64,000 nt of DNA from the NCBI GenBank assembly GCA_965247585.1, contig CBDFHC010000005.1, forward strand, positions 192,334-256,333. The letters run 5' to 3'. Under the pieces are notes generated by a model, which was given only the letters and a program-made list of their open reading frames with translations, was not told the DNA's origin and made no database searches. The position numbers and the translations under genes were made by a program. Positions 88 through 64,000 of this stretch are shown piece after piece (within the stretch, counting starts at the first letter, position 1; the number at the start of each line of letters is the position of its first letter). The stretch comes from Dehalococcoidia bacterium. Its GTDB lineage: Bacteria; Chloroflexota; Dehalococcoidia; Lucifugimonadales; GCA-2712585.

Positions 88-118
88 AGGCAAAGGGGCT
101 TCGCCCCTCTGCACTCCC
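88..118 (+). repeat. Hairpin-2 + tail remnant of the repeat family (S-type), 15 nt after the stop codon
   Basis: GGCAAAGGGGCTTCGCCCCTCTGCACTCCC. The stem is AGGGGC/GCCCCT (94-108), followed by the family tail CTGCACTCCC. A T5 run lies at 120-124. Confidence 0.7.
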
Positions 119-274
119 ATTTTTCATCAGCCTGTTGGGGATGGTCAGCGCGCAGAGTTGGCGAATCGATTGAGTCGGGATGACTGGGCTAACACGGACG
201 GTCAGTATGCAACGAGGTGGAGCTGAGAGCGCTAAAGGAGTCAAGAGCTTACAGACGCTAAGAAGGACGGGGAG

Positions 275-1465
275 ATGATAAGCAAGTTCGACAGCCTGTA
301 CGCCGGGCACGTGGACATGGAGGACGTAGGCTACGGGGGCACGGCGGTGAACGACCGGTGGTTTTCCGACGAGCACCTGGCCACGGCGGCAGACAAGGCA
401 ACGGCCATGGCGCGCCTGATGGACGGGCTAGGGTACGACACGTTGTGGCTGGCGGAGCACCACTTCCAGCGGGAAGGGTTCGAGTGCATACCTAACATCA
501 TGATGCTAGGGGTGCACCTGGCGCATTTGACCAAGGAGTTGAAGATAGGATGCGGGTTCAACGTTACGCCGATGTGGCACCCGCTGCGGCTGGCGGAGGA
601 CTTCGCGACGGTGGACTACCTGACGGGGGGGCGGCTGACATTCGGCGTGGGAAGAGGATACCACTCGCGAGAGGTGGAGACTTTCGGTGCGCCGGTGATG
701 GACCAGGCAGCGAACAGGGAGCTTTTCGAAGAGCAGGTGGAGATAATCTTTAAGGCGTTCAACGAGCGGGCGTTTTCGCACCGGGGGAAGCACTACACGC
801 TGCCGGCGAACGTGCCGTACAGGGACTACGAGCTGAAGGAGCTGACGCTGGTGCCGAGGCCGTTGAATCGTCCGGTGGAGTGCTGGCAGCCGATAGTCAG
901 CGCGAATCCCAGGGGTTTCGATTTCATGGCGAAGCACGGGATCAAGGGGCTGATTGGCGGGGGAATTTCGGAAGGAGGAGCGCGCTTCAACGTGATAGAG
1001 GAGTGGCGAGATGCGCTGGGGAGGACGGGCCGGGAGGCGGAGCTAGGGGAGGACCTGGCGGTAGGTTTCCATTTCTATCTGTCGGAGAGCCGGGAGCAGG
1101 GGATACGGGAGGCGTCCAAGTATTTTGAGGAGAACCTGAAGTCCTTTGGGCCGCTGAGGGTGGGGAGCCCGATGACGGACCAGCAGATACGGGACCTGAG
1201 TGACCCCAATCGAGCGCCGTATGCGGACCTGCCCTCGATGGAGGGAGCGGTGAATTCCGGGTCGTTTCTTTGCGGGACGCCGGAGGAGGTTATAGAAGAC
1301 CTGATGGGCCGGGAAGCGCGGATGCCGGGGTTGGAGCGGGTGAACGTGGCGCACCCGGTGGGGATGCCGCAGAGCGTGATCCTGGAGCAGTTGGAGCGGT
1401 TCGCCGAGGAGGTGATGCCGGCATTCACGAACCGGACAACGGTAGCGGCGGCGGACGGCGGCTAG
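275..1465 (+). CDS. LLM-class (luciferase-like) flavin/F420-dependent oxidoreductase
   Basis: 396-aa ORF with LAEHHFQREGFE and the overall pattern of the luciferase-like monooxygenase family. AAGGA lies 7 nt upstream of the ATG. Confidence 0.85.
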   Translation: MISKFDSLYAGHVDMEDVGYGGTAVNDRWFSDEHLATAADKATAMARLMDGLGYDTLWLAEHHFQREGFECIPNIMMLGVHLAHLTKELKIGCGFNVTPMWHPLRLAEDFATVDYLTGGRLTFGVGRGYHSREVETFGAPVMDQAANRELFEEQVEIIFKAFNERAFSHRGKHYTLPANVPYRDYELKELTLVPRPLNRPVECWQPIVSANPRGFDFMAKHGIKGLIGGGISEGGARFNVIEEWRDALGRTGREAELGEDLAVGFHFYLSESREQGIREASKYFEENLKSFGPLRVGSPMTDQQIRDLSDPNRAPYADLPSMEGAVNSGSFLCGTPEEVIEDLMGREARMPGLERVNVAHPVGMPQSVILEQLERFAEEVMPAFTNRTTVAAADGG

Positions 1466-1478
1466 TGGGGCAGGGTTT

Positions 1479-1935
1479 GTGAGTAAATTGAACTAGAACA
1501 GCGATAGTGGGCGCCAGGGTTGGACGTGCTTTCCCACTACACCCAGATGCTCCCCTTCGACGTGCTCAGGACAAACTTACCTCACGGACGGACTCAGAAT
1601 CTAACATGCTATTGGCAGCGCACCAATACGGACGACAATAGAATGGCGGCTATCATCCATGATGGCCGGTATGGCTACCACAAAGGACTGCAAATGACAG
1701 GTTGGTGATTCCCTCCCACCCGCCCAGAAAGGTTTTTAAAAGTTTTTCTGAGGGACACCCTCAGACTCCCGGCAGAGGGGCACAGCCCCTCTGCACTCCC
1801 CCTTGTTAGGCGTGCGGAGAGCAGGGACGGTGCTATTTGCATAACAATGGCGTGACTCTCCTGGAAGCTCAACTGCTACCAGGTTGGCGCAGAGGGCGTA
1901 GAAAAAGTCAAAGACTCACAAGCTCTCAGGGGACG
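1479..1935 (+). repeat. Composite repeat block B-A-C-D filling a convergent gap
   Basis: Modules in order:
- B variant at 1479-1612.
- A unit at 1660-1803 (box from 1699, hairpin 1 at 1748-1764, hairpin 2 at 1772-1794).
- C at 1804-1880.
- D at 1893-1935, overlapping the stop codon of the RidA-like gene. Confidence 0.9.
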
Positions 1936-2895: not shown

Positions 2896-2992
2896 CATGA
2901 CAGAGGGTTGCGAATTGGGGGTTGGTGAGGGGGGGCGTGGTATGATGCCGGGCGCCCGGGAATTCGATGTAGTGGCTGGAAAGGGGGAGGCG

Positions 2993-3553
2993 ATGGCGCG
3001 GTTGAGGCCGTTGGAGCGGAGGGAGCTTACTGCCCAGGGAAGGGAGGTGTGGGACTGGTATGTGGGGACCCGGGGCTACGAGGTGAAGGACAATTATCGG
3101 ACGCTGCTGCACAGTCCGGAGGCAGCGAAGCGGTTTTCGGAGCTGGGAGAGTACCTGAGGTTTCGATGTTCGGTGCCGCCTCGGCTGAGGCAGGTGGCGA
3201 TCCTGGCCACGGCGCGTTCGGTGGACAGCCACTGGGTGTGGACGCTCCACGCGCTGCTGGCGCCCAATGACGGGGTAAGCCGGGAGGTGATTGACTCGTT
3301 GGGAGAGGGGCGCGTGCCGGTGGAGGGGAGTCTGGAAGAGCAGACGGTGGCGGAGTTCGCGTTCCAGCTTCTTCGGGAGCACCGGGTATCGGAGGAGGTG
3401 TTCCGGCGGGCGCAAGGGGTGCTGGGCGACGGAGGGGTGGTGGACCTGTCGCTGCTGGTGGGTTACTACGCCAGCATGGGGCTGGCGATGGCGGCGTTCG
3501 AGGTACGGCCGGAGCCGGAGGTGGAATCGACGCTGCCTGCCTTGGGCGGCTAG
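2993..3553 (+). CDS. Carboxymuconolactone decarboxylase (AhpD-like) family protein
   Basis: The ORF track gives 2897-3553; I moved the start to ATG 2993 (GGGGGAGG upstream). It is a paralogue of 5249-5800, sharing LERxEL..GRxV.D....TRGY.V..NY.TLLHSPE. Confidence 0.8.
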   Translation: MARLRPLERRELTAQGREVWDWYVGTRGYEVKDNYRTLLHSPEAAKRFSELGEYLRFRCSVPPRLRQVAILATARSVDSHWVWTLHALLAPNDGVSREVIDSLGEGRVPVEGSLEEQTVAEFAFQLLREHRVSEEVFRRAQGVLGDGGVVDLSLLVGYYASMGLAMAAFEVRPEPEVESTLPALGG

Positions 3554-4668: not shown

Positions 4669-4985
4669 TTGATCACCTCAGATGCGGGGTGGTTGGGGCG
4701 GTCCGGTACCGGATTAGAAGGTATGCGTTGGGGGCGGAGTAGTCAAGGTGGGGATGGGTGGGGCCTGGGCTCCCATTGGGTTGGATTGGATACGGAGTGC
4801 GGGGTAGGAGGGTAGCGGAGGGAATGTGCGCACTCGGAGGGCAGGCGCACCCCATCTTGTGCAACCGGGCAGATAGGGGGAGAGGATTCTTGGGCGGGAG
4901 GTGATTATGCATCAGGGTCTTTTTGGCAGGGTGCCGGTCTGGTTTTGACGGGACTCAGCCACAGGAAGCTAGGTTTGGACACCAC

Positions 4986-5050
4986 GAAGGGCTGCGAATC
5001 ATAGGTTGGTGATTCCCGCTCTCCTTCGAGGGCCTCAGGATGAGCGGGAA
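4986..5050 (+). repeat. Box fragment fused to E hairpin
   Basis: GCTGCGAATCATAGGTTGGTGA is followed by the stem TTCCCGCTC (5013-5021) / GAGCGGGAA (5042-5050), which closes the loop TCCTTCGAGGGCCTCAGGAT. Confidence 0.85.
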
Positions 5051-5248
5051 AGGGAGGTATAAGCGTCAATATTCGGCGCGCTGGCATTGCGATGGCAGGG
5101 GGTTGGTTTGCGAGTAGGAGGGTCTATGAGGAGGAGAAGGGAGTCGCGGCGGGATGGGTTTGACGGGATGTTGGGGGGCAATTATGATAGCCGTCGCCCG
5201 TCGATTTGCGGTAGGGATGGGTATTCGTACGAAGTGAAAAGGAGCGGT

Positions 5249-5800
5249 ATGGTCAGGTTGCGAGCCCTGGAACGAGAGGAGCTATCGGAGGAGGGGCGGC
5301 GGGTTTACGACGAGATTGTCCAGACCAGGGGGTACATAGTAAACAACTATAAGACGCTGCTGCACAGCCCGGAGGGCGCGGGGCGGTTTGCGCACCTGGG
5401 GCATTATCTGAGGGCGCTTTCGCCGGTGGAACGGAGGCTGAGGGAGGTGGGGATTCTGGCGGGTGCGAAGGCGGTGGAGAGCGAGTACGTGTGGAGCGCC
5501 CACGAGCCGCTGGCGCGGGACGCGGGGGTGGCGGAAGGGGTGATTGAGGCGATTCGAGAGGGGAGGTTGCCGGGGGAGGGCTTTTCCGAGGAGGCGGCGA
5601 TAGTGGGGTACGCGTGGCAGATGCTGAAGGAGCACAAGGTGGAGGACGAGACGTTTGAGGCGGTGCGGACGAGGCTGGGTGACGCGGGGGTGGTGGACCT
5701 GACGCTGATGATTAACTATTACGTATCACTGGCGCTGGCGATAGCGGCGCTGGAGATACCGCTGCCGGAAGGGTTCGACCCGCTGGTCTCGATACCATAG
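5249..5800 (+). CDS. Carboxymuconolactone decarboxylase (AhpD-like) family protein
   Basis: The ORF track gives 5087-5800; I moved the start to ATG 5249 (AAAAGGAG upstream). Paralogue of 2993-3553. Confidence 0.8.
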   Translation: MVRLRALEREELSEEGRRVYDEIVQTRGYIVNNYKTLLHSPEGAGRFAHLGHYLRALSPVERRLREVGILAGAKAVESEYVWSAHEPLARDAGVAEGVIEAIREGRLPGEGFSEEAAIVGYAWQMLKEHKVEDETFEAVRTRLGDAGVVDLTLMINYYVSLALAIAALEIPLPEGFDPLVSIP

Positions 5801-5860
5801 GCTGTGGCGACGCCGGGGCGATGGCGGGGGATGCGGTGGAGATGGGCTGGGCTGGGGCGG

Positions 5861-5983
5861 AGGACTGCGAGTTGAAGGTTGGTGGTTCCCACCATCCCGC
5901 TCAGGAAGGTTTTATATTTAGTTCTGAGGGACACCCTCAGACTCCCGGCAGCACCACCCAGGTCCCCTGCACTCTCCTGTGGG
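5861..5983 (+). repeat. A unit, subtype-2 tail
   Basis: AGGACTGCGAGTTGAAGGTTGGTGGTTCCCACCATCCCGC...CTGAGGGACACCCTCAGACTCCCGGCAGCACCACCCAGGTCCCCTGCACTCTCCTGTGGG. Confidence 0.9.
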
Positions 5984-6047
5984 ACTGGAGCTAATTGCGC
6001 GGAGGAGGCCCCATTCCTAAGGGCGAGAATTGTAATTGGAGGTTGGC

Positions 6048-7580: not shown

Positions 7581-8752
7581 CCCGCTAGGAGGGAACCAAG
7601 GTCCTCTGCGCTCTCTGTGGTGTTAGCGTTGGGAGAAAGCCGGGGGCTGTTTTCCAGGGCAGTCAGCCATGGCGATGGGTATGGCCACTACAGAGGGTGG
7701 CGAATCACGGGTTGGTGGTTCCCGCCGTCCCACCACAGAAGGTTTTATTGAAGTCCTGAGGGACACCCTTATCCGCCATAGAGCGTGTGAGTAAATTGGG
7801 CTGGTACAGCGCGATTGAGGGCGCGAGGGTTGGGTGTGCTCTCCCACCACACCCAGATTCTTCGATCCTCACGGGCGGACTCAGAATGACATGGTGGGGG
7901 GCGGAATGCGGTATGGGCTCGTCCTTCGAGGGCCTCAGGATGAGCGGGTTGGAGGCGCAGAGAGGGTGGCGAATCACGGGTTGGTGGTTCCCGCCGTCCC
8001 GCCCCGGATGGTTTTATTGAAGCCCTGATGGACACCCTTATCCGCCACAGAGCGTGTGAGTAAATTGGGCTGGTACAGCGTTAGAGGGCGCGAGGGTTGG
8101 GTGTGCTCTCCCACCACACCCAGATTCTTCGATCCTCATGGGCGGACTCAGAATGACATGGTGGAGGGCGGAATGCGGTATGGGCTCGTCCTTCGAGGGC
8201 CTCAGGATGAGCGGGTTGGAGGCGCAGAGAGGGTGGCGAATCACGGGTTGGTGGTTCCCGCCGTCCCGCCCCGGATGGTTTAAGAAACGGCTTTCTGATG
8301 GCCCGCTCTGGACTCCCTCTTGGTAGGCGCAGGTAGAGTACGGACGGTCCTATTTTCACAGGAATGACATGAGTAATTTCGACGCTAGACATGCGATAAA
8401 GTGGCGATGAAAGTGCGGAAGAAGTAAAAAAGTCACAGACTTACAGGCGAACCAGCAGGGAACCGCGGTACTCTGCACCCTTCTGTGGGGCAGAGGATGG
8501 AGGTAGGGTTGGATTGAACTGAGGCTGGGCGGTGATGTGGCACGGGAACGGCGCCTTTGCTACGATAGGCGCGGTTCTGAGCAACGCATGAATTGGGGGA
8601 ATCATTGATGGCGTTGGGTGTTGCTACCACAAAGGGTTGCAAATCATAGGTCGGTGACGCCCACCCACCCGCCCCAGACGGTTTTTAAAAGCTTATTTCT
8701 GAGGGGCACCCTCAGAGTCACGCCAGAGGCGGTTTCCCCTCTGGACTCTCCT
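7568..8752 (+). repeat. Repeat cluster: S remnant, three box units with two B modules, C, D, and one complete A unit
   Basis: - An S remnant overlaps the GMC stop codon (7568-7620).
- The first two of the three box units are cut inside hairpin 1 (CTGAGGGACACCCTTA|TCCGCC) and continue into B.
- C lies at 8321-8392 and D at 8420-8500.
- A complete A unit lies at 8595-8752. Confidence 0.9.
7692..8320 (+). repeat. Tandem repeat of [truncated A + B], about 268-bp period, about 2.3 copies
   Basis: AGAGGGTGGCGAATCACGGGTTGGTGG recurs at 7692, 7961 and 8228 (periods 269 and 267). Confidence 0.9.
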
Positions 8753-8802
8753 TCTTCAGGCGTTGTTCAAGGGACGAAGTTTCGATTTTCGAGGGAAGTG
8801 AT

Positions 8803-10368: not shown

Positions 10369-10385
10369 AGGGAAGGGAGGTGGAA

Positions 10386-11556
10386 GCGGTATGGGCTCGA
10401 CTCTCCCTTCGACAAGCTCAGGATAAACTTGGCCTCAGGATGCGGATTCTCGTGGCACAAAACCCACCGGGAGGGTGTTGCTATTGCACAGGGCTGCGCC
10501 TCAAAGGTTGGTGGTTCCCACCATCCCGCCCAGGAAGGTTTTAATTCCTGAGGGACACCCTCAGACTCTCGGCAGCCACCACCCGGGTCCCCACACCCTC
10601 CTGTTTGGGCTGCAATGGAAGCCGCTGGCACAGCGAAAGAGGATGCGAGGGTTGGATGTGCTCTCCCCCCACACCCAGATTCTTCGATCTTCACGGGCGG
10701 ACTCAGAATGACATGGCGGGGGGCGGAATGCGGTATGGGCTCGTCCTCCCCTTCTACAAGCTCAGGCTGAACGGGTTGGAGGTGTAGGGTTGCCATGGCG
10801 GTGGGTGTTTCTATTGCACAGGACTGCGCCTCAAAGGTTGGTGGTTCCCACCGTCCCGCCCCGGAAGGTTTTTAGATCGATTTTCTGTGGGACACCCTCA
10901 GGCTCCCGGCAGAGAGGGTACGCCCTCTCTGGACTCTCCCCGAAAAGGTCATTATAAAAGGCTGGAGGCTCTATTTTCGAGGCAACGACATGACTCCTTT
11001 GGAAGCTCAACGCGGGGAAATGAGACGCTGAAAAAGCCGACGAAGCCAAAAACTCATAGGGTCTCAGGATGAGCGGGCTGGAGGTGTAGAGAGGGACTGC
11101 GAATCATGGGTTGGTGGTTCCCACCGTCCCGCCCAGGATGGTTTTCAGAACGTTTTTCTGAGGGACACCCTCAGACTCCCGGCAGCCACCACCCGGGTCC
11201 CCTACACCCTCCTGTTTGGGCTGCAATGGAAGTCGGCTGGCACAGCGAAAGAGGATGCGAGGGTTGGATGTTCTCTCCCCACACCCAGATTCTTCGATCT
11301 TCACGGGCGGACTCAGAATGACATGGCGGGGGGCGGAATGCGGTATGGGCTCGTCCTCCCCTTCGACAAGCTCAGGATGAGCGGGTTGGAGGAGTAGGTT
11401 TGCCATGGCGGTGGGTGTTGCTATTGCACAGGACTGCGCCTCAAAGGTTGGTGGTTCCCACCATCCCGCCCAGGAAGGTTTTTAAAACGTTTCTCTGAGG
11501 GACACCCTCAGACTCCCGGCAGGGAACCTAGGTTCCCTGCACTCTCCTGTTTGGGC
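10386..11556 (+). repeat. Repeat cluster with four A and three B modules
   Basis: Modules in order:
- B2-like at 10386-10450.
- A at 10470-10600.
- B at 10601-10785.
- A at 10786-10945 (hairpin 2 at 10910-10931).
- C+D at 10946-11090.
- A at 11090-11212.
- B at 11213-11395.
- A at 11396-11556 (hairpin 2 at 11519-11540). Confidence 0.9.
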
Positions 11557-11604
11557 CGCAGAGGAAGCAGGCTGGGGTAATTTTGAGGCGAGGAATGGTG
11601 AGCT

Positions 11605-13740: not shown

Positions 13741-13745
13741 AGGAG

Positions 13746-13811
13746 GGTTTCTGAGGAACACCCTCAGACGCCCGGGAGCCACCACCTGGGTTCCCTGCAC
13801 TCTCCTGTTTT
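13746..13811 (+). repeat. S unit (hairpin-only half) filling a 72-bp convergent gap
   Basis: GGTTTCTGAGGAACACCCTCAGACGCCCGGGAGCCACCACCTGGGTTCCCTGCACTCTCCTGTTTT. It begins 5 nt after the TAG at 13738-13740 and ends 1 nt before the next gene's stop. Confidence 0.9.
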
Positions 13812-13812
13812 G

Positions 13813-14643
13813 TCAGGAGCTAAGTTTGAGGATGCGGCGGGCGTTTTCCAGGAGGATTTTGGGGCGGACTTCGTCACGGATGGGGAGAGCGTCGAATTCG
13901 TTGAGCCAGCGGTCCGGGGGAAGGTAGGGGAAGTCTGAGCCGAAGAGTACCTTGTCGCGGAGGCGGGTATCGGCCTCGCGGATGAGGGGTTCGGGGATGA
14001 AGCGGGGGCTCCAGCCAGAGAGGTCCAGGTAGACGTTGGCCTTGTGAAGGGTCACGGCGATCTGCTCTTCGATCCAGGGCCAGGCGGGATGAGCCATGAT
14101 GATGGTGAGGTCCGGAAAGTCGGCGGCGACGTCGTCGATGCCGGGGATGGGGGCGCTGTACTTTAGCTTGAAGCCAGCGCCGCCGGGGTGGCCCGCGCCG
14201 GCGGCGGCGAAGCCGGAGTGGAAGAGGACGGGGACGCCCAGCTCCATGCATTTCCGGTAGAGGGGATAGAAGTGGGGATCGTTGGGGAAGAAGGCCTGGT
14301 GGATGGGGTGGAGCTTGAGGCCGCGAAGGCCAAGCTCTGTCACGGAGCGCTCCAGCTCCAGGACGGCGGACTTTCCTTTCCAGGGGTCCACGGTGGCGAA
14401 GCCGATGAACTGGTCTGGGTAGGTCTTGACGATTCCGGAGACGTAGTCGTTGGAATCAGGGGGCTCGGCGGTGGTTATCTGGGTATCGACGGAGAAGATG
14501 AGGCCGAAGATGTCCCATTCTTTGTAGCGGCGGGCCATCTCGGCGGCGTCCTCGGGCGGGTCCTTGACGCGGAAGTAGCTGCGGAGGTGGGCTTCGACCT
14601 CGACGGGTTGCAGGCCGGGCTGCCGGGGGACGTGGACGTGCAT
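13813..14643 (-). CDS. Amidohydrolase family protein (Amidohydrolase_2 / ACMSD-like)
   Basis: N-terminal MHVHV metal motif, plus FHSG, MAHPAWPW and GSDFPY. Coordinates use the first ATG. The conserved IKAID strand and a GGAGG lie upstream; see the finding on ATA 14656-14658. Confidence 0.8.
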   Translation of the reverse strand: MHVHVPRQPGLQPVEVEAHLRSYFRVKDPPEDAAEMARRYKEWDIFGLIFSVDTQITTAEPPDSNDYVSGIVKTYPDQFIGFATVDPWKGKSAVLELERSVTELGLRGLKLHPIHQAFFPNDPHFYPLYRKCMELGVPVLFHSGFAAAGAGHPGGAGFKLKYSAPIPGIDDVAADFPDLTIIMAHPAWPWIEEQIAVTLHKANVYLDLSGWSPRFIPEPLIREADTRLRDKVLFGSDFPYLPPDRWLNEFDALPIRDEVRPKILLENARRILKLSS

Positions 14644-15984: not shown

Positions 15985-16310
15985 ACTCTGGGGCGCAGTT
16001 TCGAAACGGGTGGGAGGGTTGTTGGGGAGGGAAGCTTTTGTTTTAGGTTCTGAGGGACATCCTCGGACTCCCGGCAGCCACCACCCAGGTTCCCTGCACC
16101 TTCCTGTGGGGTTGGTGTTTCCCGCTCTCCTGCGAGGGCCACAGAGCTTGTGAGTAACCTGAGCTGGAACAGCGATAGTGGGCGCCAGGGTTGGATATGC
16201 TCTCCCCCCACACCCAGATTCTTCGATCTTCACGGGCGGACTCAGAATGCCATGGTGTGGGACGGAATGCGGTATGGGCTCGTCCTTCGAGGGCCTCAGG
16301 ATGAGCGGGA
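15985..16310 (+). repeat. Degenerate A unit, E fragment, B module
   Basis: Hairpin 1 at 16050-16066 is CTGAGGG-ACA-TCCTCGG (two G.U pairs). The tail is subtype 2. B lies at 16149-16310. Confidence 0.85.
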
Positions 16311-16457
16311 ATGGGAGGGACGAAGGGCGATATTCGAGGGGATGGAGAGGGGGTTTCTTGACAGGTTATAGGGTGGCTGATAGCCTTTCGGCCAGCCTCG
16401 GCCCGGTGGTTATTCAAAGGGTACGGCGAGGAACAAGGGGGGCATTCGGAAGGTGAA

Positions 16458-17645: not shown

Positions 17646-17760
17646 GCGGTGAACTGTGGGCGGATTACTGATGGTTGGAGCGAAATATCCGCTCCTATTT
17701 TGGAGGGACTTTATTAGGAGCGAGGGCCAGCCTAACTATCAGTGCGACGCGACGCTGGGA

Positions 17761-18040
17761 GCGTGTGAACAAACCGGGCTGGAACAGTGAAACTGGGCGC
17801 GAAGGTAGGATATGCTCTCCCACCACACCCAGATTCTTCGATCCTCACGGGCGGACTCGGAATCCATCATGCTGGGGGGCGGAATGCGGTATGGGCTCGT
17901 CCTTCGAGAGCCTCAGGATGAGCGGGTTGGAGGCGTAGGAGGCTTATTTTCATAGGAATTACATGACTGATACGGACTCTCCCAGTGGGACATTGCGACG
18001 TTCCATAAGCCGGAGAAGTCAAAAGCTCTTAGGCTCTCAG
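17761..18040 (+). repeat. B + C' + D modules
   Basis: B lies at 17761-17935 (the ATTCT/GGAAT stem has a U.G pair). GGAGGCTTATTTTCATAGGAATTACATGA follows at 17936-17990, and D lies at 18010-18040. Confidence 0.9.
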
Positions 18041-19713: not shown

Positions 19714-19724
19714 TATGAGGCGGG

Positions 19725-20114: not shown

Positions 20115-20263
20115 GGTGAGACCTCCGTTGGATAGGGTGTGTTGGCGCGGAGCCCATTCTACCAGCCGGGCAGGGGGTTGCGGGGAGGAGAGAGGTGGCA
20201 CTATAGTCCGGCGGTAACGGAGGGCGGTTGGATGATTGATGGTGCGTGGGAGGAGCCCCGGGC

Positions 20264-20685: not shown

Positions 20686-20718
20686 AGGGAAAGTAGCGCG
20701 CGTTTAGTGTGTAAAGCA

Positions 20719-44200: not shown

Positions 44201-44282
44201 GTAGGAGGGTGGACCGGGGCTGGAGTGTTGTGGGAAGGGGTATGGAAGCCGGATGGGATTATGTTTTCGAGGCAATTGTGGA

Positions 44283-45334: not shown

Positions 45335-45567
45335 ATACGAATTAAGAACGCTTAGATAGGGACAGTTAGCGGTTTCCTGGGCGATAGAGGGCGGGGAAGC
45401 GGCGGAAGCCAAGCGCAAAGAGAGCCGTGAGATCAGCCCGGATCGGCCAGCCTGAACCGCAGGAGGGCTGGAAGGGCCGCCCGTTACAGCGCTGGAGCGC
45501 CCCGGCAGGCCGGGGAAGAAGGGTGGTAACGCGGAGCAGGTCCGTCCCTTCCAGGGACGGGCTTTTT
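45335..45567 (+). promoter_or_regulatory. T-box riboswitch leader controlling ilvBNC
   Basis: AGAGAG and GTGAGA stem-I elements lie at about 45418-45432. The T-box sequence GGGTGGTAACGCGG (45521-45534) overlaps the 5' side of a terminator hairpin. The specifier codon is not resolved. Confidence 0.8.
45540..45567 (+). terminator. T-box leader terminator (attenuator)
   Basis: GTCCGTCCCT-TCC-AGGGACGGGC (10 bp, one U.G), followed by TTTTT (45563-45567). Confidence 0.85.
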
Positions 45568-47323: not shown

Positions 47324-47862
47324 TGCAGGATAGGACCACAACGCCGGAGAACACTACTACGATAGTGGCTATGGTGCGGGACCGGCCCGGGGTTCTGAAC
47401 CGGGTGTCCAGCATGTTCCGCCGCCGAAACTTCAACATTGTGAGCCTGGCGGTGGGACAGTCAGAGGCGCCAGGAATGTCACGGATGACGTTCGTGGTGA
47501 CCGGTGACGACGCCACGGTGGACCAGGTGATAAAGCAGCTTCGGAAGCTGATTGACGTAGCGTCAGTGAGCCCCTTAAGCGAACAGCACATGGTGTCCAG
47601 GGAGCTGGCGCTGATCCGGGTGCACGCGAGCTCGCTGACGCGGGCGGAAGTGACGCAGATAGTAGAGATATACCGGGCTAATATAGTTGACGTGGCGCCG
47701 GACTCGTTGATAGTTGAAGTGGTGGGTGACGAGGACAAAGTACAGTCCCTGAAGAACCTACTTTCGACCTTCGGGATAACGGAGATGATCCGGACGGGAA
47801 GGGTAGCCATGTTGCGTGGTATGACCGAGGACACGCCGAACGGCAGAACGCCCATATCTTAG
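47323..47862 (+). CDS. ilvN: Acetolactate synthase, small (regulatory) subunit
   Basis: ACT domain ([22 protein letters not shown]). The start overlaps the ilvB stop (TGATG). Confidence 0.95.
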
Positions 47863-47923
47863 GGGCGTCCCGAACCTGATTATTGGGTGTACCAAGCGTC
47901 TAAGAGGAAGAAAGGACTGATTC

Positions 47924-48922
47924 ATGGCGATAATGTATTACGAATCCGACGCCGACCTAGGGCTGTATTCTGACAAGAAGGTGGGAGTGATAGGCTACGG
48001 TAGCCAGGGGCACGCGCACGCGTTGAACCTGCATGACAATGGGGTCGATGTAAAGGTAGGGCTGTACGAGGGAAGCGCGAGCCGGGCGAAGGCCGAGGAG
48101 GCAGGGCTGGAGGTGGGCACGGTGGCGGAGGTGTCCGAGTCGTCTGACGTAATCATTATGTTGATACCGGATACAACGCAGCCGAGGGTTTTCCAGGAGT
48201 CTGTCTTGCCGCACCTGCACCCTGGGAAGACGTTGATGTTCGCGCACGGATTTAACATCCACTATAAGACGATAGTCCCGCCGGCGAACATTGACGTTTC
48301 GATGGTTGCGCCGAAGGCGCCCGGGCACCGAATGAGGGAGGTGTTTGTGAAGGGCTCCGGGGTTCCAGGGTTGCTGGCTATTCACCAGGACGTTTCGGGG
48401 AAGGCAAGGGAGATGGGACTGGCGTATGCCAAGGGGGTGGGGTGCACCCGGGCGGGAGTGCTGGACACGACGTTCAAGGAGGAGACGGAGACGGACCTGT
48501 TCGGGGAGCAGGCGGTACTGTGCGGGGGAGTAACCGCGCTGGTGAAGAACGCATTCGAGGTGCTGACGGAGGCGGGGTATCAGCCGGAGTCGGCGTACTT
48601 TGAGGTGCTGCACGAATTGAAGCTGATAGTAGACTTGATGTACGAGGGCGGTATGGGTTACATGCGCTATTCGGTGAGCGACACGGCGGAGTTTGGGGAC
48701 TACACGCGGGGGCCAATGGTGATAGACGCCAGCGTTAAGGACCGGATGCGAGAGGTGCTGGCGGCGATTCAGGACGGGAGCTTCGCGCGGGAGTGGATAG
48801 CGGAGAATGACGAGGGGCGGGCGCGGTTCCACCGGTTGCGGAAGGAGAACGCGGACCACCCGGTAGAGAAGGTTGGGGTGGAGTTGCGGGGGATGATGCC
48901 GTGGCTAAAGGAGCAGATGTAG
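47924..48922 (+). CDS. ilvC: Ketol-acid reductoisomerase
   Basis: 332 aa class-I KARI with [13 protein letters not shown]. Confidence 0.95.
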
Positions 48923-48926
48923 TAGC

Positions 48927-49117
48927 AGGTCTGGCGATGGGTATCGCCAGTTCAAAGGACTGAGAATCACAGGTTGGTGGTGCCCACCAACCCGCCCAGG
49001 AAGGTTTGTTTAAATATAGTCTGAGGGACACCCTCAGACTGCCGGCAGAGAACTCAGGTTCCCTGCATCCTCCTTGATGACTGGAAGTGGTTGAAAGGTT
49101 GGTGGAATTTTAAAGCG
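48927..49117 (+). repeat. A unit plus internally deleted box fragment
   Basis: The A unit at 48927-49075 starts 5 nt after the ilvC stop. The fragment GGTTGGTGGAATTTTAAAG (49097-49115) ends 2 nt before the ATG of the next gene. Confidence 0.9.
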
Positions 49118-49744
49118 ATGACAACGAACGGAGAGGCAGTAGACGTTTTTGTTTGGTACGACTATATATGACCGTGGTGTTATGTCGGCCTGGAGCGGCT
49201 CGACAGGCTAGGGAAAGAGTTCAACATTAAGGTCCACGGCAGAGCGTTTTTCCTGCGCCCTGATATGCCCAAGGAGGGGACGCCGCGAGAGCCGCGTCCA
49301 GGGGAAGAGGACGGGCTGCTGGCGGAGCCGCTGCGCAGCTATGCATCCGAGGCGGGGTTGGTGATGAGGCGGCCTCCGCTGACGCCGTACACGATTACGG
49401 CGCTGGAGGCCACGGAGCACGCGCAGCAGCAAGGTAAGTTCATGGAGTTCCACCACTCGATGTATAAGGCGCTGTGGGAGGATGGGAAGGACCTGGGAGA
49501 TGCTTCGGCGTTGCGGGAGGTGGCGGAGGGTTGCGGGCTGGAGTGGGCTGAAATGGAGGAGAAGCTGGAGAAGGGGGACTACAGCGCGACGGTGCAGGGG
49601 CAGCACCAGGAGGCGATGGACCTGGGGATCCACGGGATCCCGGCGTTTCTGGTGGGGAACCTGCTGTTCACAGGGGCTCAGCCGTACGAGGTGTTCCAGA
49701 AGGCAATGAACCGCGTGCTGGCGGAGAGGGATGGGGAGGGGTAA
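49118..49744 (+). CDS. DsbA/FrnE-like thiol:disulfide oxidoreductase, probable selenoprotein (TGA 49169-49171 read as Sec)
   Basis: The same frame as ORF 49265-49744 extends upstream as MTTNGEAVDVFVWYDYI-TGA-PWCYVGLERLDRLGKEFNIKVHGRAFFLRPD. The TGA replaces the first Cys of the family CPWC motif, and a SECIS-like hairpin follows. Confidence 0.7.
49183..49205 (+). promoter_or_regulatory. SECIS-like hairpin
   Basis: TGTCGGCC-TGGAGC-GGC(T)CGACA: 8 bp with one bulged U and a G-rich loop. It starts 11 nt after the TGA. Confidence 0.6.
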
Positions 49745-49746
49745 TA

Positions 49747-49800
49747 TCCGAGGGACACCCTCGGACTCCCGGCAAAGGGGCGCTGCTCCTCTGCACTCCC
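49747..49800 (+). repeat. S unit with compensated hairpin 1
   Basis: CCGAGGG-ACA-CCCTCGG (49748-49764; T-A changed to C-G), then ACTCCCGGCAAAGGGGCGCTGCTCCTCTGCACTCCC. It begins 2 nt after the TAA. Confidence 0.9.
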
Positions 49801-49832
49801 GTTATTGGTCCGATTTCGGTGTCTGCCGAGAG

Positions 49833-51047: not shown

Positions 51048-51506
51048 GAGTTTAAAGGAATTGATTTTTGAGGGACACCCTCAAACTCCCGGCAGGGGGC
51101 TGTGCCCCTCTGCACTCCCTCTCTCAAGGGATTCCCAAGGGGCGAGGATCATATTCCCACGGCAATCGCACATGCCGGTTGCGACCGGCAGCAATGGGGA
51201 TGAAAATCCAATGTCGATGATACAAGTAGACGCGAAGGTGGAGAATGCTCTCCCCCCACACCCAGATTCTTCGATCCTCACGGGCCGACTCAGAATGACG
51301 TGATGGTGGACGGGTGCTTGCCGACGCTGACGGGACAGACTGCATGACGTGAGGGAGGGTTGACTGGCGAAGCGTTAGCCGCTCCTAAGGGTTGCAAATC
51401 GAAGGTTGGTGGTTCCCACTATCCCGCCCAGGAAGGTTTTTAAAGTTTTTCTGAGGGACACCCTCAGGCTCCCGCCAGCAAGGGTGCTCCCTCTCTGGAC
51501 TCTTCC
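51048..51506 (+). repeat. S, F, B1, A
   Basis: S at 51048-51120, F at 51160-51245, B1 at 51246-51305, A at 51365-51506. Confidence 0.9.
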
Positions 51507-51534
51507 CGGAAGGAAGGTTCAATGTGAGAGGCGG

Positions 51535-52484: not shown

Positions 52485-52715
52485 TGGGGGGCAATCAGGG
52501 ATCGCGAGGTGTATGGCCGATGTGAAGGGTTGAGAATCACAGGTTGGCGGCGCACCTCCTCTGTAACTATCCCCCTCGATAAGGGGCGAGGATTTTTACT
52601 GAGGGACACCCTCAGACTCCCCCTCTAAGGTCGTCTTTCAAGGGCCGACGTTTCTATTTCGGAGGCGATCCGGCATGGAGTGGAGGCGCGCCTGGGGCGA
52701 TGATGGGAGGCCCCA
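52485..52715 (+). repeat. Degenerate A unit plus H-like module
   Basis: GGGCAATCAGGGATCGCGAGG...GAGAATCACAGGTTGGCGGCGCACC...CTGAGGGACACCCTCAGACTCC, then TTTCTATTTCGGAGGCGATCCGGCATGG. Confidence 0.8.
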
Positions 52716-53737: not shown

Positions 53738-54320
53738 CCTAGCAGGGAACCCCGGTTCCCTGCATCTTCCAATGGAGCTGGAAAGAAAGGCAAGGGCTGG
53801 TGCAATTTGGGGCATCAGCCATGGCGATGGGTTTTGCCACTACGAAGGATTGAGAATTGGAGGTTGGTGGTGCCCACCCGCCCACCCAGTAAGGTTTTAA
53901 TTTCTGAGGGACACCCTCAGACTGCCGGCAGAGGGGCACAGCCCCTCTGCACTCCCCCCTTAGTGGGTTTCTTTGACAAGGAAGCCGATCCGAGTTTGAG
54001 GGGCATCAATCTTGGCGATAGGTGAGTGCACCACGAAGGGTTGCAAATTGGAGGTTGGGGGTAGTCACGCGTCCACCCAGTAGGGTATTAATTTCTGAGG
54101 GACACCCTCAGACTCCCGGCAGAAGGGGTGTGCCCCTCTGCACTCCCCTTTAGTGGGTTTCTTTGACAAGGAAGCCGATCCGAGTTTGAGGGGCATCAAT
54201 CATGGCGATAGGTGAGTGCACCACGAAGGGTTGCAAATCGGAGGTTGGGGGTACTCACGCGTCCACCCAGTAGGGTTTATTTCTAAGGGCCACTGTGAGC
54301 CGCCTCGGCAGGCATGTTTC
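53738..54320 (+). repeat. Hairpin-2 remnant and three tandem A units (about 190-bp period)
   Basis: GCAGGGAACC-CC-GGTTCCCTGC lies at about 53741-53762. CTGAGGG/CTAAGGG occurs at 53904, 54095 and 54283. The third unit is decayed. Confidence 0.9.
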
Positions 54321-56029: not shown

Positions 56030-56637
56030 TTCCATTTGCGGGGCAATCAGTCATGGCGAAGGGTGTTGGAGCACCACCAGGGATTAACAGCCGAAGAAGG
56101 CCCGTCGATAGCCTCAGGATGAGCGGGTAAGGAATGGGGTCTCTATTGCAGGATCCGTACAGCGTTATTTGTGAGGCAAACAGTAATGGCGATGGGCATG
56201 GCCTGTGCGAAGGACCGCAAATCACAGGTTGGTGGTTCCCACCATCCCGCCCAGAAAGGTCTTATTTCTGAGGGACACCTTCAGAATCCCGGCAGCCACC
56301 ACCCAGGTTCCCTGCACTCTCTTTTGTTGGGTGACCAGCTATGGAGATAGGTGTCACTGCCGGTGACGAAAATTCAGGTATATTGATAAAGGTAGAACGT
56401 GCTCTCCCCCCGCACCCAGATTCTTCGATCCTCACGGGGGGACTCAGAATGCCATTGTGGGGGGCGGGATGCGGTATGGGCTCGTCCTTCGAGAGCCTCA
56501 GGATGAGCGGGTTGGAGGCATAGGAGGCTTATTTTCATAGGAATGACATGTCGGAGAGTTGAAGTGGGGCTGGAGTGACGGGGGTATGGCTTTGGAAGCA
56601 TTATGGGCTCCTATTTTCGGGATGATCAGGAGAAGCG
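56030..56637 (+). repeat. Lead fragment + E end, A, F-like, B, C', lead fragment
   Basis: A at 56165-56325, B at 56399-56515, C' at 56516-56550. The lead-like GGGCTCCTATTTTCGGGATGATCAGGAGAAGCG (56605-56637) abuts the next ATG. Confidence 0.9.
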
Positions 56638-58783: not shown

Positions 58784-58849
58784 GTTAGCTCAGCGCTCAT
58801 TAGTGGATGTCATTAGGTCAGCTTATGTATGAGCGGTCAAGTCAGGGGC

Positions 58850-59312
58850 AAATTCCTGGGGAGAATCAGTCATGGCGATGGGTATAGCAATCACAGAGGA
58901 TTGAAAATCATAGGTTGGCGGTTCCCACCCACCCGCCCAGAAGGGTTTTTAAATAAATTTCTGAGGGACACCCTCAGACTCCCGGCAGCCACCACCCAGG
59001 TTCCCTGCACCCTCCTGTTTGGTTGGTGTTGATCGCACACTGGAGGCTCCCTTTCAAAGGCCGGACTGGGCTATTTTGGGGGGAATCAGTCATGGCGATG
59101 GGTATAGCAATCATAGAGGATTGAAAATCATAGGTTAGTGGTGCCCACCGTCCCGCCCAGGAAGGTTTATAAAGTATATTTTGAGGGACACCCTCAGACA
59201 CCCGGCAGCCACCACCCAGGTTCCCTGCACCCTCCTGTGTCGCTGGAGCTGATTGCATAGAGGGGGCTCTCTTTTAACGACCCGGCTAAGCTGTTTTCGG
59301 GAGAATTGGGGA
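58850..59312 (+). repeat. Two tandem A+H units (220-bp period)
   Basis: G(A/G)GAATCAGTCATGGCGATGGGTATAGCAATCA occurs at 58861 and 59081. Both units have subtype-2 tails. Confidence 0.9.
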
Positions 59313-61474: not shown

Positions 61475-61494
61475 GTGTTACAGCAATAGATGAA

Positions 61495-61552
61495 TTCTGA
61501 GGGACACCTTCAGACGCCCGGCAGGGAACCCAGGTTCCCTGCACCCTCCTGT
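61495..61552 (+). repeat. S unit in a divergent gap
   Basis: TTCTGAGGGACACCTTCAGACGCCCGGCAGGGAACCCAGGTTCCCTGCACCCTCCTGT. Confidence 0.9.
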
Positions 61553-61677
61553 AAAGAAGCTAGGAGAATTGGAAGGCGGGAGGCGTGGGAGGAGCGGTTG
61601 TGTGGGTCTGGGGGCGGTGCTATCCTAACGCTGGATTTCGCCTACGGGCGCCGCTGAAATAGGCAGGAGGACGGTCC

Positions 61678-62562
61678 ATGGCTGATAAGAATATCCAATG
61701 CGCCTTTGGGGTAGATGTGGACGCGGTGGCAGGGTGGCTGGGCTCGTACGGGGGCGAGGACTCGCCGGACGACATCTCGCGGGGGCTGTTCGCCGGGGAG
61801 GTGGGGACGCCCCGGCTGCTGAAGTTCTTCGACCGGATGGGTATAAAGGCGACCTGGTTCATACCCGGGCACTCGGTGGAGACGTTCCCGGAGCAAACGA
61901 AGATGATTGTGGACGCGGGGCATGAGTTGGGGCTGCACGGATATTCGCACGAGAACCCGATAGCCATGAGTCCGGAGCAGGAAGAGGCGGTGCTGGATAG
62001 GTGCATTGAACTGCTAACCAGCGTCTCCGGGAAGCGGCCGACGGGCTATGTTGCGCCGTGGTGGGAGTTCAGCCACGTGACGAATGAGCTGCTGCTGAAG
62101 CGGGGCATCAAGTACGACCATAGCCTGATGCACCGGGACTTTGAGTGCTATTACGTGCGGGTGGGAGATAAGTGGACGAAGATTGACTTTGGGCAGACGG
62201 CGGACAAGTGGATGAGGGCGCTGGAGCGAGGTGAGGAGACGGACCTGATAGAGATCCCGGCGAACTGGTACCTGGATGACCTGCCGCCGATGATGTTCAT
62301 TAAGAGCGCACCCAACAGCTATGGTTTCACGAATCCCCGGGACATAGAGCAGATGTGGCGGGACCAGTTTGATTATGTGTACCGGGAGTACGACGAAGCG
62401 GTGTTTCCGATTACGATTCACCCGGACGTGAGCGGGAGGCCGCAGGTGATTCTGATGCTGGAGCGGCTAACTTCGTACATCATGACCCATCCCGGGGTGC
62501 GGTTCCGGACGTTTGACCAGATGGCGGACGATTTCGCCGCCCGGCACCCGCGTAAGAAGTGA
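61678..62562 (+). CDS. Polysaccharide deacetylase (NodB-fold, PuuE-like) family protein
   Basis: 294 aa with the overall pattern of the divergent polysaccharide deacetylase / allantoinase PuuE group. Confidence 0.75.
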
Positions 62563-62663
62563 CGGCAGCCGGGGGGAGCAATTGAGCAGGCCTCCGAGGT
62601 GGGTAGGCGCCGGGATGCGGCGGTTCCCCCGGGCGGCGCGGGCGATAGGCCGCAGGAGCGGCG

Positions 62664-63056
62664 ATGGCTTGGGTTGACGCCATAGGCGCGGTGATCAAGG
62701 GCATCGCGGTGCCCTATGGGTACACGCTGGCCATATGGTCCGCGGGGATGCTGGCGGTGGGGCGCTACGGGCATCCGCGGGTGTCCGACGTGTTCATGTT
62801 TGTGCTGGGGGCGGTGGCGGGCTATCTGCTGTTCGACCTGTTGAGCGTGGGCGGGCTGACGGCGGACGACAACTACACGGTTGAAGTGCCGTCGGTGGCG
62901 CTGTTGAACGTTTTGCCGATCATCCCGGCGGTGCTGACGGCGTTTGTGGCGCGGGAGATACCGTGGAGGAGATTGGGGTTCCCGGCGATGGGGTTCTCGG
63001 CGACGATTTTCTATATTCTGTCGCTGGGGACGTTGTTCTGGGTGTGGTCGTTATAG
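62664..63056 (+). CDS. Small integral membrane protein, unknown function
   Basis: 130 aa with four hydrophobic segments. GGAG lies 6 nt upstream of the ATG. Confidence 0.6.
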   Translation: MAWVDAIGAVIKGIAVPYGYTLAIWSAGMLAVGRYGHPRVSDVFMFVLGAVAGYLLFDLLSVGGLTADDNYTVEVPSVALLNVLPIIPAVLTAFVAREIPWRRLGFPAMGFSATIFYILSLGTLFWVWSL

Positions 63057-64000
63057 GGGACACCTCCCGACGGTGACGAAGGGCTGGCGGTTAAGCCGGT
63101 TGGTGTTACATGGTGAGAGGGTTACGGGTCACGGGTTGGTGGTGGCCGCTCTCCTTCGAGAGCCTCGGGATAAGCGGGAAAGGGAGGGAATCCGGTCTGC
63201 TTTCGGGGGCGATCAGCCATGGAGATGGTTTGGTGAGCGCGAAGGATTGCGAATCACAGGTTGGCGGTTCCCACGGTCCCGCCCCGGAAGGTTTTAAGTT
63301 CTGAGGGACACCCTCAGTCTCCCGGCAGAAGGGCTGCGCCCCTTTGCACTCCCTCTCTTTGGCAGGCGGCCCTAAGAGGAAGCAATGTTCCTTTCCTTTG
63401 GGGCGATCAGCCTTGGTGGATGGTTTGGTGACGGCGAAGGATTGCGAGTCACGGGTTGGCGGTGGAAGTAGACTCTAAGGTGGGACATGCTCTCCCTCCA
63501 CACCCAGATTCTTCGATCCTCACGGGCGGACTCAGAATGACATGACTTATGCGGAGGCTGAATGCGGGACAATGAGACGCTGAAAAGCCGACGAAGCCAA
63601 AAACTCACAGGGTTTCAGACTCCCTGCAGAAGGGCTGTGCCCCTCTGCACTCTCCCTCTTAGGCAGATAGCCCTAAGAGGAGGCAATGTTCCTTTTCGTT
63701 GGGGCGATCAGCCTTGGTGGATGGTTTGGTGACCGCGAAGGATTGGGAGTCACGGGTTGGCGGTTCCCACCGTCCCGCCCCGGAAGGTTTTAATTTCTGA
63801 GGGATACCCTCAGTCTCCCGGCAGAAGGGCTGCGCCCCTCTGCACTCCCTCTTTGGCAGGTGGCCCTAAGAGGAGGCAATGTTCCTTTCCTTTGGGGCGA
63901 TCAGCCTTGGTGGATGGTTTGGTGACGGCGAAGGATTGCGAGTCACGGGTTGGCGGTTCCCACGGTCCCGCCCTGGAAGGTTTTAAGTTCTGAGGGACAC
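63054..64000 (+). repeat. Repeat cluster running to the window end
   Basis: - An S remnant overlaps the stop codon (63054-63075).
- Box+E lies at 63110-63185.
- A lies at 63195-63350.
- A interrupted by B1+D lies at 63395-63656.
- A lies at 63690-63850.
- A lies at 63880-64000, truncated by the window end. Confidence 0.9.

Follow-up and report, generated by a model that had tools for sequence, protein, structure and literature searches.

The window analysed here is a 64,000-nt stretch of contig CBDFHC010000005.1 from a Dehalococcoidia bacterium, and the subject of this work is a family of modular, hairpin-bearing repeats that occupies the gaps between its genes. The genes were called with a frame-plot caller and validated by Pfam; 29 lie on the + strand and 20 on the - strand, the coding fraction is 71%, the + strand carries 64% of the coding bases, and the G+C content of the window is 62%. 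They encode ordinary enzymes and transporters, among them luciferase-like monooxygenases, amidases, penicillin amidase, a GMC oxidoreductase, short-chain dehydrogenases, ilvBNC, MTHFR, gamma-glutamyltranspeptidase and an ammonium transporter. No transposase, integrase, reverse transcriptase or Cas gene is present among the ~48 Pfam-annotated genes, and no tRNA gene was found in the 64 kb. A first-pass annotation, made from the letters alone, had likewise noted the lack of those four kinds of gene and a coding density of about 70 percent, and both observations stand.

The window's ketol-acid reductoisomerase (KARI; 47924-48922) is 100% identical to P0133, whose public contig also encodes open reading frames (ORFs) derived from one of the repeat modules described below, module B (P0122, P0124, P0126), and it is 90% identical to the KARI of SAR202 cluster bacterium AD-804-J14_MRT_500m, the nearest named organism. 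A pattern search with the box of the repeat recovers deep-ocean metagenome contigs only; one of them has the accession prefix ABEF, which we take to be that of the Station ALOHA 4000-m metagenome. On the strength of the KARI identities and of the confinement of the box pattern to deep-ocean metagenome contigs, we assign the host to a deep-ocean SAR202 (Dehalococcoidia) lineage.

An nhmmer profile of 153 positions, built iteratively from one ~150-nt unit and applied at a cut-off of E ≤ 0.01, gave 61 matches in the window, all of them on the + strand and none on the - strand. The asymmetric 21-mer GGGACACCCTCAGACTCCCGG, with up to three mismatches allowed, occurs 44 times on + and never on -, against a chance expectation of 0.02. 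When the window was compared with itself by BLASTN, 2002 direct high-scoring segment pairs (HSPs) and no inverted HSPs were obtained, and a repeat-family search returned at least 60 direct families and a sole inverted pair, which is a chance match inside genes. The direct BLASTN repeats span 13,196 bases (20.6% of the window), 840 of which belong to a pair of paralogous carboxymuconolactone-decarboxylase (CMD) genes. Forty-three of the profile matches cover at least 100 profile positions, eight consist of the hairpin part only (S) and nine of the box only. Such A or S matches are found in 29 of the 50 gaps, and the total rises to 31 if one gap with module B alone (17759-17990) and a hairpin fragment at 79-121 are added. 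The initial counts (about 46 units with box and hairpins, 13 S units and 8 box-only fragments in 31 gaps, amounting to 13-14 kb) are thus reproduced.

It can be seen that genes do not set the direction of the repeats: 19 matches lie between two + genes, 13 between two - genes, 13 in divergent (-+) gaps, 9 in convergent (+-) gaps and 6 at the window end, and about 47% of the ++ gaps and 55% of the -- gaps are occupied. The earlier description of copies that all lie on + among genes of mixed strand is therefore correct (61 of 61 profile matches, 44 of 44 motif matches and 2002 of 2002 HSPs lie on one strand), and the many inverted copies that it had named as counter-evidence do not occur in the window. 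We conclude that the orientation of the repeats is independent of the neighbouring genes.

The full unit, A, is ~150 nt long and, read on the G-rich strand, consists of a 5' box and a 3' S module. The box is a succession of blocks (ATCAG..ATGG..GATGGG..AAGG..TGCGAATC..AGGTTGGTGG..CCCGCC..GGTTTTTAA) that are kept as sequence and not as structure. The S module contains, in this order, hairpin 1 (HP1; CTGAGGG-ACA-CCCTCAG), which is nearly invariant, ACTCCCGG, hairpin 2 (HP2), which has a GCA...TGC base, and ACTCC. The two palindromes measure 17 and ~23 nt, and both hairpins share the flank ACTCC on their 3' side on +, which corresponds to GGAGT 5' of the hairpin foot on -. Compensatory variants of HP1 are found at 49747 (CCGAGGG/CCCTCGG) and 51067 (TTGAGGG/CCCTCAA). 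The GCA...TGC base of HP2 is constant and the rest of its stem is swapped wholesale, as in AGAGGGGC/GCCCCTCT and GGGAACC/GGTTCCC, with TCCCGA/TCGGGA and GGAGG/CCTCC in relatives; we read this stem exchange as clear hairpin covariation. The two ends of a unit are unrelated to each other and carry no terminal inverted repeats; the window as a whole gave no inverted HSP. Folding of the units revealed no conserved hairpin at the 5' end, the two conserved hairpins being confined to the 3' third. The left boundary of A lies at a T-rich/TATTT motif that is not invariant, and the right boundary varies by subtype; no invariant 4-5-nt target was seen at the 5' ends, the single comparison of a filled with an empty site being too diverged for the junctions to be read.

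Module B, which is ~230 nt long (for example 7783-8014, 16144-16375, 17759-17990, 43996-44227 and 56346-56577), and several shorter linkers join A and S in mosaics and in tandem arrays with periods of 190, 193, 220, 245/491 and 267 nt. Modules are fused at microhomologies, and their truncations are variable. Module B has an open + frame (..ALPPHPDSSILTGGLRMTWWGAECGMGSSFEGLRMSGLEA) that is annotated elsewhere as small hypothetical proteins (P0121-P0125); its reverse frame (..NPLILRLSKDEP..) resembles the repeat-derived spurious ORFs of many Chloroflexota and cyanobacterial genomes.

The window is strongly asymmetric. GC skew lies between +0.08 and +0.34 in each 2-kb bin, so that cumulative skew climbs monotonically, and the non-repeat DNA has 353 copies of GGTGG on + against 33 on -, and 76 of GGAGGCG on + against none on -. 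At third codon positions, read on the + strand, the GC skew of + genes is +0.46 and that of - genes +0.52, with an AT skew near 0. With values of about +0.5 whichever way a gene points, the asymmetry belongs to the replication type and not to the coding type, and to our knowledge it is among the strongest of this type in a bacterium. Leading strands generally contain more G than C. From this rule, and from the 64% of coding bases carried by +, we infer that + is the leading strand, in which case the + sequence would be that of the lagging-strand template.

The first-pass annotation had called for a comparison of repeat orientation with GC skew, and in strongly skewed DNA the two agree. Besides the window itself, nine independent deep-ocean metagenome contigs of the same lineage were compared, and in all nine the orientation of each repeat HSP equals the sign of the non-repeat GC skew; one of these contigs has a negative skew, and the repeats on it are reversed accordingly. 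Repeats at two loci of OZ240215.1, a strongly skewed Dehalococcoidia chromosome, also agree with the skew. These results support the view that the orientation of the repeats is tied to replication-type strand asymmetry and not to genes, with the direction of replication taken from GC skew.

We compared the window with four syntenic contigs (L098, L099, L100 and the TARA scaffold L101) whose KARI is ~80% identical to that of the window and whose genes share ~70% nucleotide identity with it. In L098, L099 and L100 strand-type skew is absent, A and S give no match, the gaps are short and ORFs cover 84-89%, and the gene order of the window is conserved in the repeat-free relatives. At the gap between the HTH_5 and deacetylase genes, the S unit of the window (61486-61583) splits non-coding blocks that are conserved in L098. 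Since the syntenic relatives are repeat-free, the orthologous gaps are short and this S unit interrupts conserved blocks, the units are lineage-specific insertions, acquired in the lineage of the window. The scaffold L101 (16.5 kb) is intermediate in skew (third-position GC skew +0.03 in + genes and +0.33 in - genes) and 78% covered by ORFs; neither A nor S matches it, and so skew can exist without this repeat family. L097, a short-read contig of 3091 nt from another assembly, is 98.2% identical to the window and contains the same unit after ilvC in the order ilvN-ilvC-unit-DSBA; the post-ilvC unit is therefore not an assembly artefact.

Pairwise identity between units has a median of 73%. The nearest relative of a unit lies in the same gap for 21 of 43 units (87-97% identity) and elsewhere for the other 22 (77-90%), and six tandem arrays are found, at 87-97% identity. 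Since local tandem duplication accounts for about half of the units, the independent events number ~30 and not ~60; taken as independent trials of orientation, ~30 gaps and nine foreign contigs are still overwhelming. Conservation is block-wise, HP1 with its flank and GGTTGGTGG being nearly invariant and the neighbouring columns having an entropy of ~1.5 bits. The post-ilvC unit differs between the window and L097 at 2 of 164 nt (1.2%), compared with 37 of ~896 third codon positions (4.1%; P ~0.03 for this one unit), which is a hint of constraint or homogenisation. The whole aligned interval (46592-49682) has 55 differing sites. Of these, first, second and third codon positions have 7, 2 and 37, the A unit has 2, and the other intergenic DNA (238 nt) has 7; the commonest changes are A>G and G>A, with 14 each. 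Relative to their consensus, the copies show a mild substitution asymmetry only (A>G 0.076, T>C 0.042). As a clue to which strand folds, G-T wobbles in HP1 outnumber A-C mismatches by 11:2 on +, an excess of C>T changes that is expected from mutational bias anyway, and in relatives the ratio is 65:15 in favour of the opposite strand, mostly at one fixed HP2 position. At position 4 of HP2, 46 of 80 copies from relatives have A.C, equivalent to G-U pairing on the opposite strand.

The S module has a wider distribution than the full unit. Its exact 21-mer (HP1 with flank) recurs in no fewer than 87 stretches of DNA; these belong to at least 26 assemblies of Dehalococcoidia/Chloroflexota that come from soil, groundwater and the sea, and the part common to these other genomes is restricted to profile positions ~63-153, that is, the S module. 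In other Dehalococcoidia (L001-L087) it is sparse, usually a single copy ~80-150 nt from gene ends. The two-hairpin S module is an unannotated element widespread in the Dehalococcoidia. Its recurrent neighbours in relatives are just paralogue-rich enzyme families and an insertion sequence (IS) with a DDE transposase. This 1.7-kb IS (DDE_Tnp_1_4) occurs in two relatives (L017 207-1931, L022 817-2529, L025 4474-7670 and L051 411-2120; 86-99% identity); one end abuts S in L022, whereas no other copy has S as its neighbour. The soil relative L019 (first 8 kb of OZ253478.1) has at 642-1577 (-) its own ~200-nt tandem mosaic array, made of S and other perfect hairpins (CCCCCTTCCT-AGC-AGGAAGGGGG and GGAGGCACATCCTCC); mosaic arrays are therefore not unique to the lineage of the window.

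The individual occurrences, all on the + strand, are as follows. An isolated HP2-type hairpin fragment (GGCAAAGGGGCTTCGCCCCTCTGCACTCCC; repeat-search family D11, 74% to the reference) lies at 79-121. The segment 1471-1849 has a module B fragment (1473-1577) and then a full A unit (1652-1801), and the divergent gap at 2377-2927 holds a box-only match (2377-2447), two A units (2464-2612 and 2689-2817) and a box fragment (2893-2927). There is a box-only fragment at 4963-5075 and a single A unit (5836-5977) at 5836-6025. At 7592-8372 a 267-nt tandem array of 2.2 copies (95%) is found in which truncated A units (7662-7777, 7958-8046, 8225-8328) alternate with module B (7783-8014, 8050-8281), followed at 8590-8763 by a single A unit (8600-8751). 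Four A units (10470-10600, 10793-10939, 11081-11212, 11402-11547) with module B pieces (10605-10709) occupy 10375-11575, and an S-only unit at 13743-13823 takes up an entire 72-nt convergent gap. The segment 16030-16375 combines an S-only match (16030-16103), with two G-T wobbles in HP1, and module B (16144-16375), and module B stands alone at 17759-17990. At 19253-19725 an S match overlaps the stop codon of the isocitrate/isopropylmalate dehydrogenase gene and is accompanied by two A units (193-nt tandem, 89%), and at 20277-20687 module B (20376-20607) is fused with a 5'-truncated A unit (20553-20673). A tandem array of five A units, with a period of 245 nt and a higher-order period of 491 nt (94-97%), lies at 21974-23131 between two - genes, as do the two A units at 24367-24734.

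Two further A units (27302-27450 and 27627-27777) are found at 27292-27829, and single ones at 29177-29366 and, between two - genes, at 32068-32235. An A unit (33754-33890) with a module B fragment (33964-34068) lies at 33710-34126, an A unit (36665-36814) with module B-like 124-nt repeats and box fragments (36894-36926 and 37142-37177) at 36626-37263, an A unit (40128-40269) with a box fragment at 40116-40387, and three A units in the convergent gap at 41314-41896. The segment 43782-44269 consists of an S fragment (43782-43841), a box (43886-43941) and module B (43996-44227). The A unit at 48924-49087, the one shared with L097, begins 2 nt past the ilvC stop codon. The S-only unit with the HP1 variant CCGAGGG/CCCTCGG is at 49740-49803; the TTGAGGG/CCCTCAA variant belongs to an S-only match (51052-51119) that, with a module B fragment and an A unit (51365-51503), makes up 51051-51511 between two - genes. 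Also flanked by two - genes are a 3'-truncated A unit (52493-52621) and a pair of A units in a 220-nt tandem (58845-59306). Three A units (190-nt tandem, 87%) lie in the divergent gap at 53785-54314, and an A unit (56179-56321) with module B (56346-56577) at 56155-56619. The S-only unit at 61486-61583 sits between operator/promoter blocks conserved in the repeat-free L098. A mosaic array that continues past the window end (63092-64000) comprises a box (63092-63154), an A unit (63211-63353), a box (63405-63463), an S match (63615-63655) and two A units (63706-63849 and 63899-64000).

Some other features of the window were noted. The CMD paralogues lie at 2897-3553 and 5087-5800, with another at 19725-20570, and the 420-nt direct similarity between the first two is the only non-intergenic repeat of the window. 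One of the long gaps without any repeat is the 356-nt gap upstream of ilvB, which contains a candidate T-box leader (RF00230) at 45344-45552 (+) that scores 57.7 bits, below the gathering score of 93 (E = 3.6e-12); its GGGTGGTACCGCGG box and terminator are conserved in L098, L099 and L100. The uracil-DNA-glycosylase-superfamily gene at 20677-21408 (+) is flanked by two repeat-filled gaps, and it may be relevant to the repair functions kept by a strongly skewed lineage.

A potential explanation, which we prefer tentatively and at rather less than even chances, is that the repeats arose by expansion, in this lineage, of non-autonomous intergenic mosaics with hairpins, elements of the kind represented by repetitive extragenic palindromic (REP) sequences and palindrome-associated transposable elements (PATEs), set on the lagging-strand template by a trans-acting HUH-type enzyme and then duplicated in tandem. 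At the replication fork, copies would have entered the lagging-strand template in single-stranded form. The enzyme would be a trans-acting single-strand nuclease or transposase of the HUH (Y1) type, with the S hairpins and their conserved flanks as its recognition sites. Such an insertion step would give every copy the same direction with respect to fork movement, regardless of the genes nearby, and arrays would subsequently grow and be shuffled by local tandem duplication and by recombination between co-oriented modules, with orientation preserved. More speculatively, long-lived single-strandedness of the same template could also yield the extreme G>C asymmetry. We favour HUH-type insertion because the strand lock tracks the skew and ignores the genes, because there are no inverted termini, and because the hairpins and the flank are conserved. 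Elements of the IS200/IS605 family insert into, and excise from, the lagging-strand template, and a single-strand mechanism is established for IS200/IS605 and has been proposed for REP and its RAYT transposase (PMC6006769, PMC5027513). Y1 enzymes recognise a tetranucleotide plus a hairpin (PMC6006769), which the ACTCC/GGAGT flank and the hairpins of the S module would resemble. Replication-coupled single-strand insertion had been one of two explanations offered in the first-pass annotation: the tracking of skew, the true insertions and the lack of terminal inverted repeats agree with it, but no HUH gene was found in the window or in 96 related loci, nor was a fixed target or a conserved 5' hairpin.

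Several other results also weigh against HUH-type insertion. No Y1/HUH, TnpB or other mobiliser gene is present among the genes of the window, and no Y1 transposase was detected in 96 related loci by tblastn and a motif regular expression, which is a weak test. The 5' ends have a T-rich/TATTT motif only. Judged by the divergence of the copies, dispersal is old and recent growth was by tandem duplication, with no sign of current transposition, and block-wise conservation together with the low strain divergence of a single unit suggests constraint beyond selfish spread. In weakly skewed Dehalococcoidia, moreover, the orientation of S is mixed, even within one 8-kb locus; 62 of 106 copies there are antisense (in profile orientation) to both neighbours, and seven of the 106 lie in divergent gaps. 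S thus follows gene direction in these relatives, and coupling to the fork is not a general property of S. Because S orientation is mixed there, the strand lock belongs to the strongly skewed lineage and not to the S module as such.

The main rival, which we regard as possible but on balance unlikely, invokes selection and not insertion bias. Here the units, the S hairpins or the box motifs would be polar DNA or RNA signals used by the host (for example, sites bound by proteins, whether on the lagging-strand template or on the leading strand as it is made), or the elements would be tolerated only when co-oriented with the fork, and copies in the wrong orientation would be purged. The strongly block-wise conservation in a family of 73% median identity, the identical 21-mer in at least 26 different assemblies and the low divergence of the post-ilvC unit all fit this second explanation of the first-pass annotation, and complete purity across ~30 independent gaps would be more easily maintained in this way; GGTTGGTGG also has a likeness to known Chi-type octamers. 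Yet no function could be identified: there is no Rfam match, no excess of promoters or terminators and no fold that is global or specific to one strand, and the DNA outside the repeats shows no enrichment of GTTGGTGG (5 versus 1). Syntenic close relatives do without the elements, the arrays with their variable truncations and fusions resemble junk mosaics, and block conservation could come equally from the needs of a mobilising enzyme on master copies or from gene conversion. Selection may act on top of an insertion bias. It is also conceivable, if rather improbable, that strand lock and the near-mitochondrial skew are two faces of one lineage-specific peculiarity of replication in which one template is single-stranded unusually long. 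The repeats would then be either new single-strand mobile DNA or polar hairpin sites retained by the host, and the family would be a marker of, or a participant in, an unusual replication mode and not a REP/PATE variant, a proposal to which we give the same low weight; prolonged single-strandedness as the shared cause is speculative.

A simpler possibility is that orientation reflects descent, a few founders having spread through unequal crossing-over, template switching between direct repeats and purely local tandem duplication, processes that keep orientation, with neither a strand mechanism nor selection. The six tandem arrays, the 21 of 43 units whose closest copy is in the same gap and the fusions at microhomologies are what this would produce, but the copies occupy 29-31 separate gaps, with genes of both strands between them, and the repeat-free relatives have these genes in the same order, so that each occupied gap needs an insertion of its own; recombination alone would be unable to carry a unit across intact conserved genes, and nine independent contigs from other samples follow the same skew rule. 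We consider descent alone improbable. There is still less to recommend the view that the A unit is a multicopy mini-gene for a peptide or small RNA, co-directional with replication against head-on collisions. Each A unit does contain a pseudo-ORF (GGAG, 8 nt, ATG, ~26 codons (MAMGVATTKGCESQVGGSHHPAQEGF), TAA; for example 22226-22315, 32079-32160, 40128-40210 and 58872-58950), and about 20 of 33 full units retain it with Shine-Dalgarno-like spacing and a stop just before the hairpins. In five copies its sole Cys codon, TGC, is replaced by TGA, and a hairpin lies ~14 nt downstream; the alternation could be taken in favour of a gene. Thirteen of the 33 units have internal stops or frameshifts, however, column variability lacks 3-nt periodicity (0.78, 0.70 and 0.73 bits at codon positions 1, 2 and 3), the translated unit has no homologue in the protein collection, and there is no sigma-70-like promoter, intrinsic terminator or Rfam match. 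The disrupted units, lack of codon periodicity and lack of protein homologues led us to reject a peptide gene; the pseudo-ORF is probably not coding, and the mini-gene reading as a whole is very improbable. The chance that an assembler gave collapsed or chimeric repeats one orientation is negligible. Repeat-rich contigs of metagenome-assembled genomes are generally prone to mis-assembly, and one unit was checked in an independent assembly; against this, the copies are diverged and each has unique flanks, L097 reproduces the ilvN-ilvC-unit-DSBA order, the same modules recur on nine contigs of other metagenomes, and gene order agrees with relatives. The mis-assembly that the first-pass annotation had cautioned about was thus not found for the ilvC unit.

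Other candidate identities were tried and rejected. The Rfam 15 covariance models gave no match at gathering score in the whole window, and chance-level matches only at E ≤ 5 in 19200-24800. A globally folded RNA is not indicated, as RNAalifold and minimum-free-energy folds gave local hairpins only, with z similar for the two strands (-0.3 to -3.2 on + and +0.3 to -6.0 on -), and autonomous transcription units are not indicated either, there being no excess of sigma-70 promoters or intrinsic terminators. A Chi- or KOPS-like role of GGTTGGTGG was dismissed for want of enrichment outside the repeats. A miniature inverted-repeat transposable element (MITE) of the DDE type does not fit, since the window has no inverted repeats and the 1.7-kb DDE IS of relatives is not systematically adjacent to S; nor does an integron cassette array, since there is no integrase and the genes are housekeeping genes on both strands, syntenic with repeat-free relatives. 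Searches of plasmids, phages, viral contigs and the literature for the motif returned no match. We conclude that the family is undescribed, and the match to a known family that the first-pass annotation had thought might turn up was not encountered.

A free-living bacterial segment with ~20% small non-coding repeats and ~71% coding DNA is exceptional for an oligotrophic ocean lineage, the syntenic relatives being compact (84-89%). With a complete strand lock that follows GC skew, this abundant uncultured clade offers a clean natural experiment on replication-coupled mobility of single-strand DNA, or on selection for orientation. Poor short-read assembly of this species is attributable to the repeats, the sole same-species short-read contig retrieved being ~3 kb. 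The conserved S hairpin module is, in addition, an unannotated element across Dehalococcoidia genomes in general.

Among known systems, the PATEs, which derive from IS200/IS605 and depend on a Y1 HUH TnpA ('peel and paste'), are alike in being short and non-coding, in having stable hairpins with conserved flanks, and in keeping one orientation relative to the fork irrespective of gene direction. The window family shares with them an orientation fixed relative to (skew-inferred) replication and the absence of terminal inverted repeats. PATEs have imperfect subterminal hairpins at either end and are inserted 3' of a set tetra- or pentanucleotide with no duplication of the target. The window family differs in that no transposase was found for it, that it has no invariant 5' tetranucleotide, that its hairpins are in the 3' half only, and that it is mosaic and modular with arrays. 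With about one copy per kb and 20% of the DNA, it is also far denser in the window than PATEs are reported to be. REP sequences, with their mosaic clusters (bacterial interspersed mosaic elements, BIMEs; REPINs) and RAYT, are likewise high-copy extragenic hairpins with a short motif by the hairpin foot and, probably, one trans-acting enzyme for the family, and S in other Dehalococcoidia resembles them in lying mostly downstream of genes and seldom in divergent gaps. However, REPs characteristically occur as inverted pairs (PMC6006769), whereas the window family has 2002 direct and no inverted matches, and its strict co-orientation is, as first proposed, unlike that of REP/BIME clusters or inverted-repeat MITEs. 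The flank is also different (ACTCC/GGAGT here, GT[AG]G 5' of the hairpin foot in REPs, whose imperfect palindromes measure 20-40 nt), and the unit is ~150 nt long with a non-palindromic box.

The pneumococcal BOX elements (boxA-B-C), the neisserial NIMEs/Correia elements and the enterobacterial ERIC resemble the window family in that non-coding, structure-prone modules combine, are truncated and are repeated in gaps, but no sequence similarity to them was found. These elements occur in both orientations on a replichore and make up a few percent of a genome at most. Polar motifs such as KOPS/SRS and Chi share the strict polarity with replication direction, and the GGTTGGTGG of the box is Chi-like, but they are 5-8-mers scattered through genes and not 150-nt units confined to gaps. 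Integron attC arrays consist of co-oriented hairpin sites that act as folded single strands, and a relation of array orientation to replication is known (PMC5371416); here the window has no integrase and its 'cassettes' are housekeeping genes on both strands with conserved synteny. We therefore file the family as a hairpin-repeat variant that is a member of neither PATE nor REP, and what sets it apart from all of these systems is its 100% polarity, its ~20% coverage and its coincidence with an extreme strand asymmetry.

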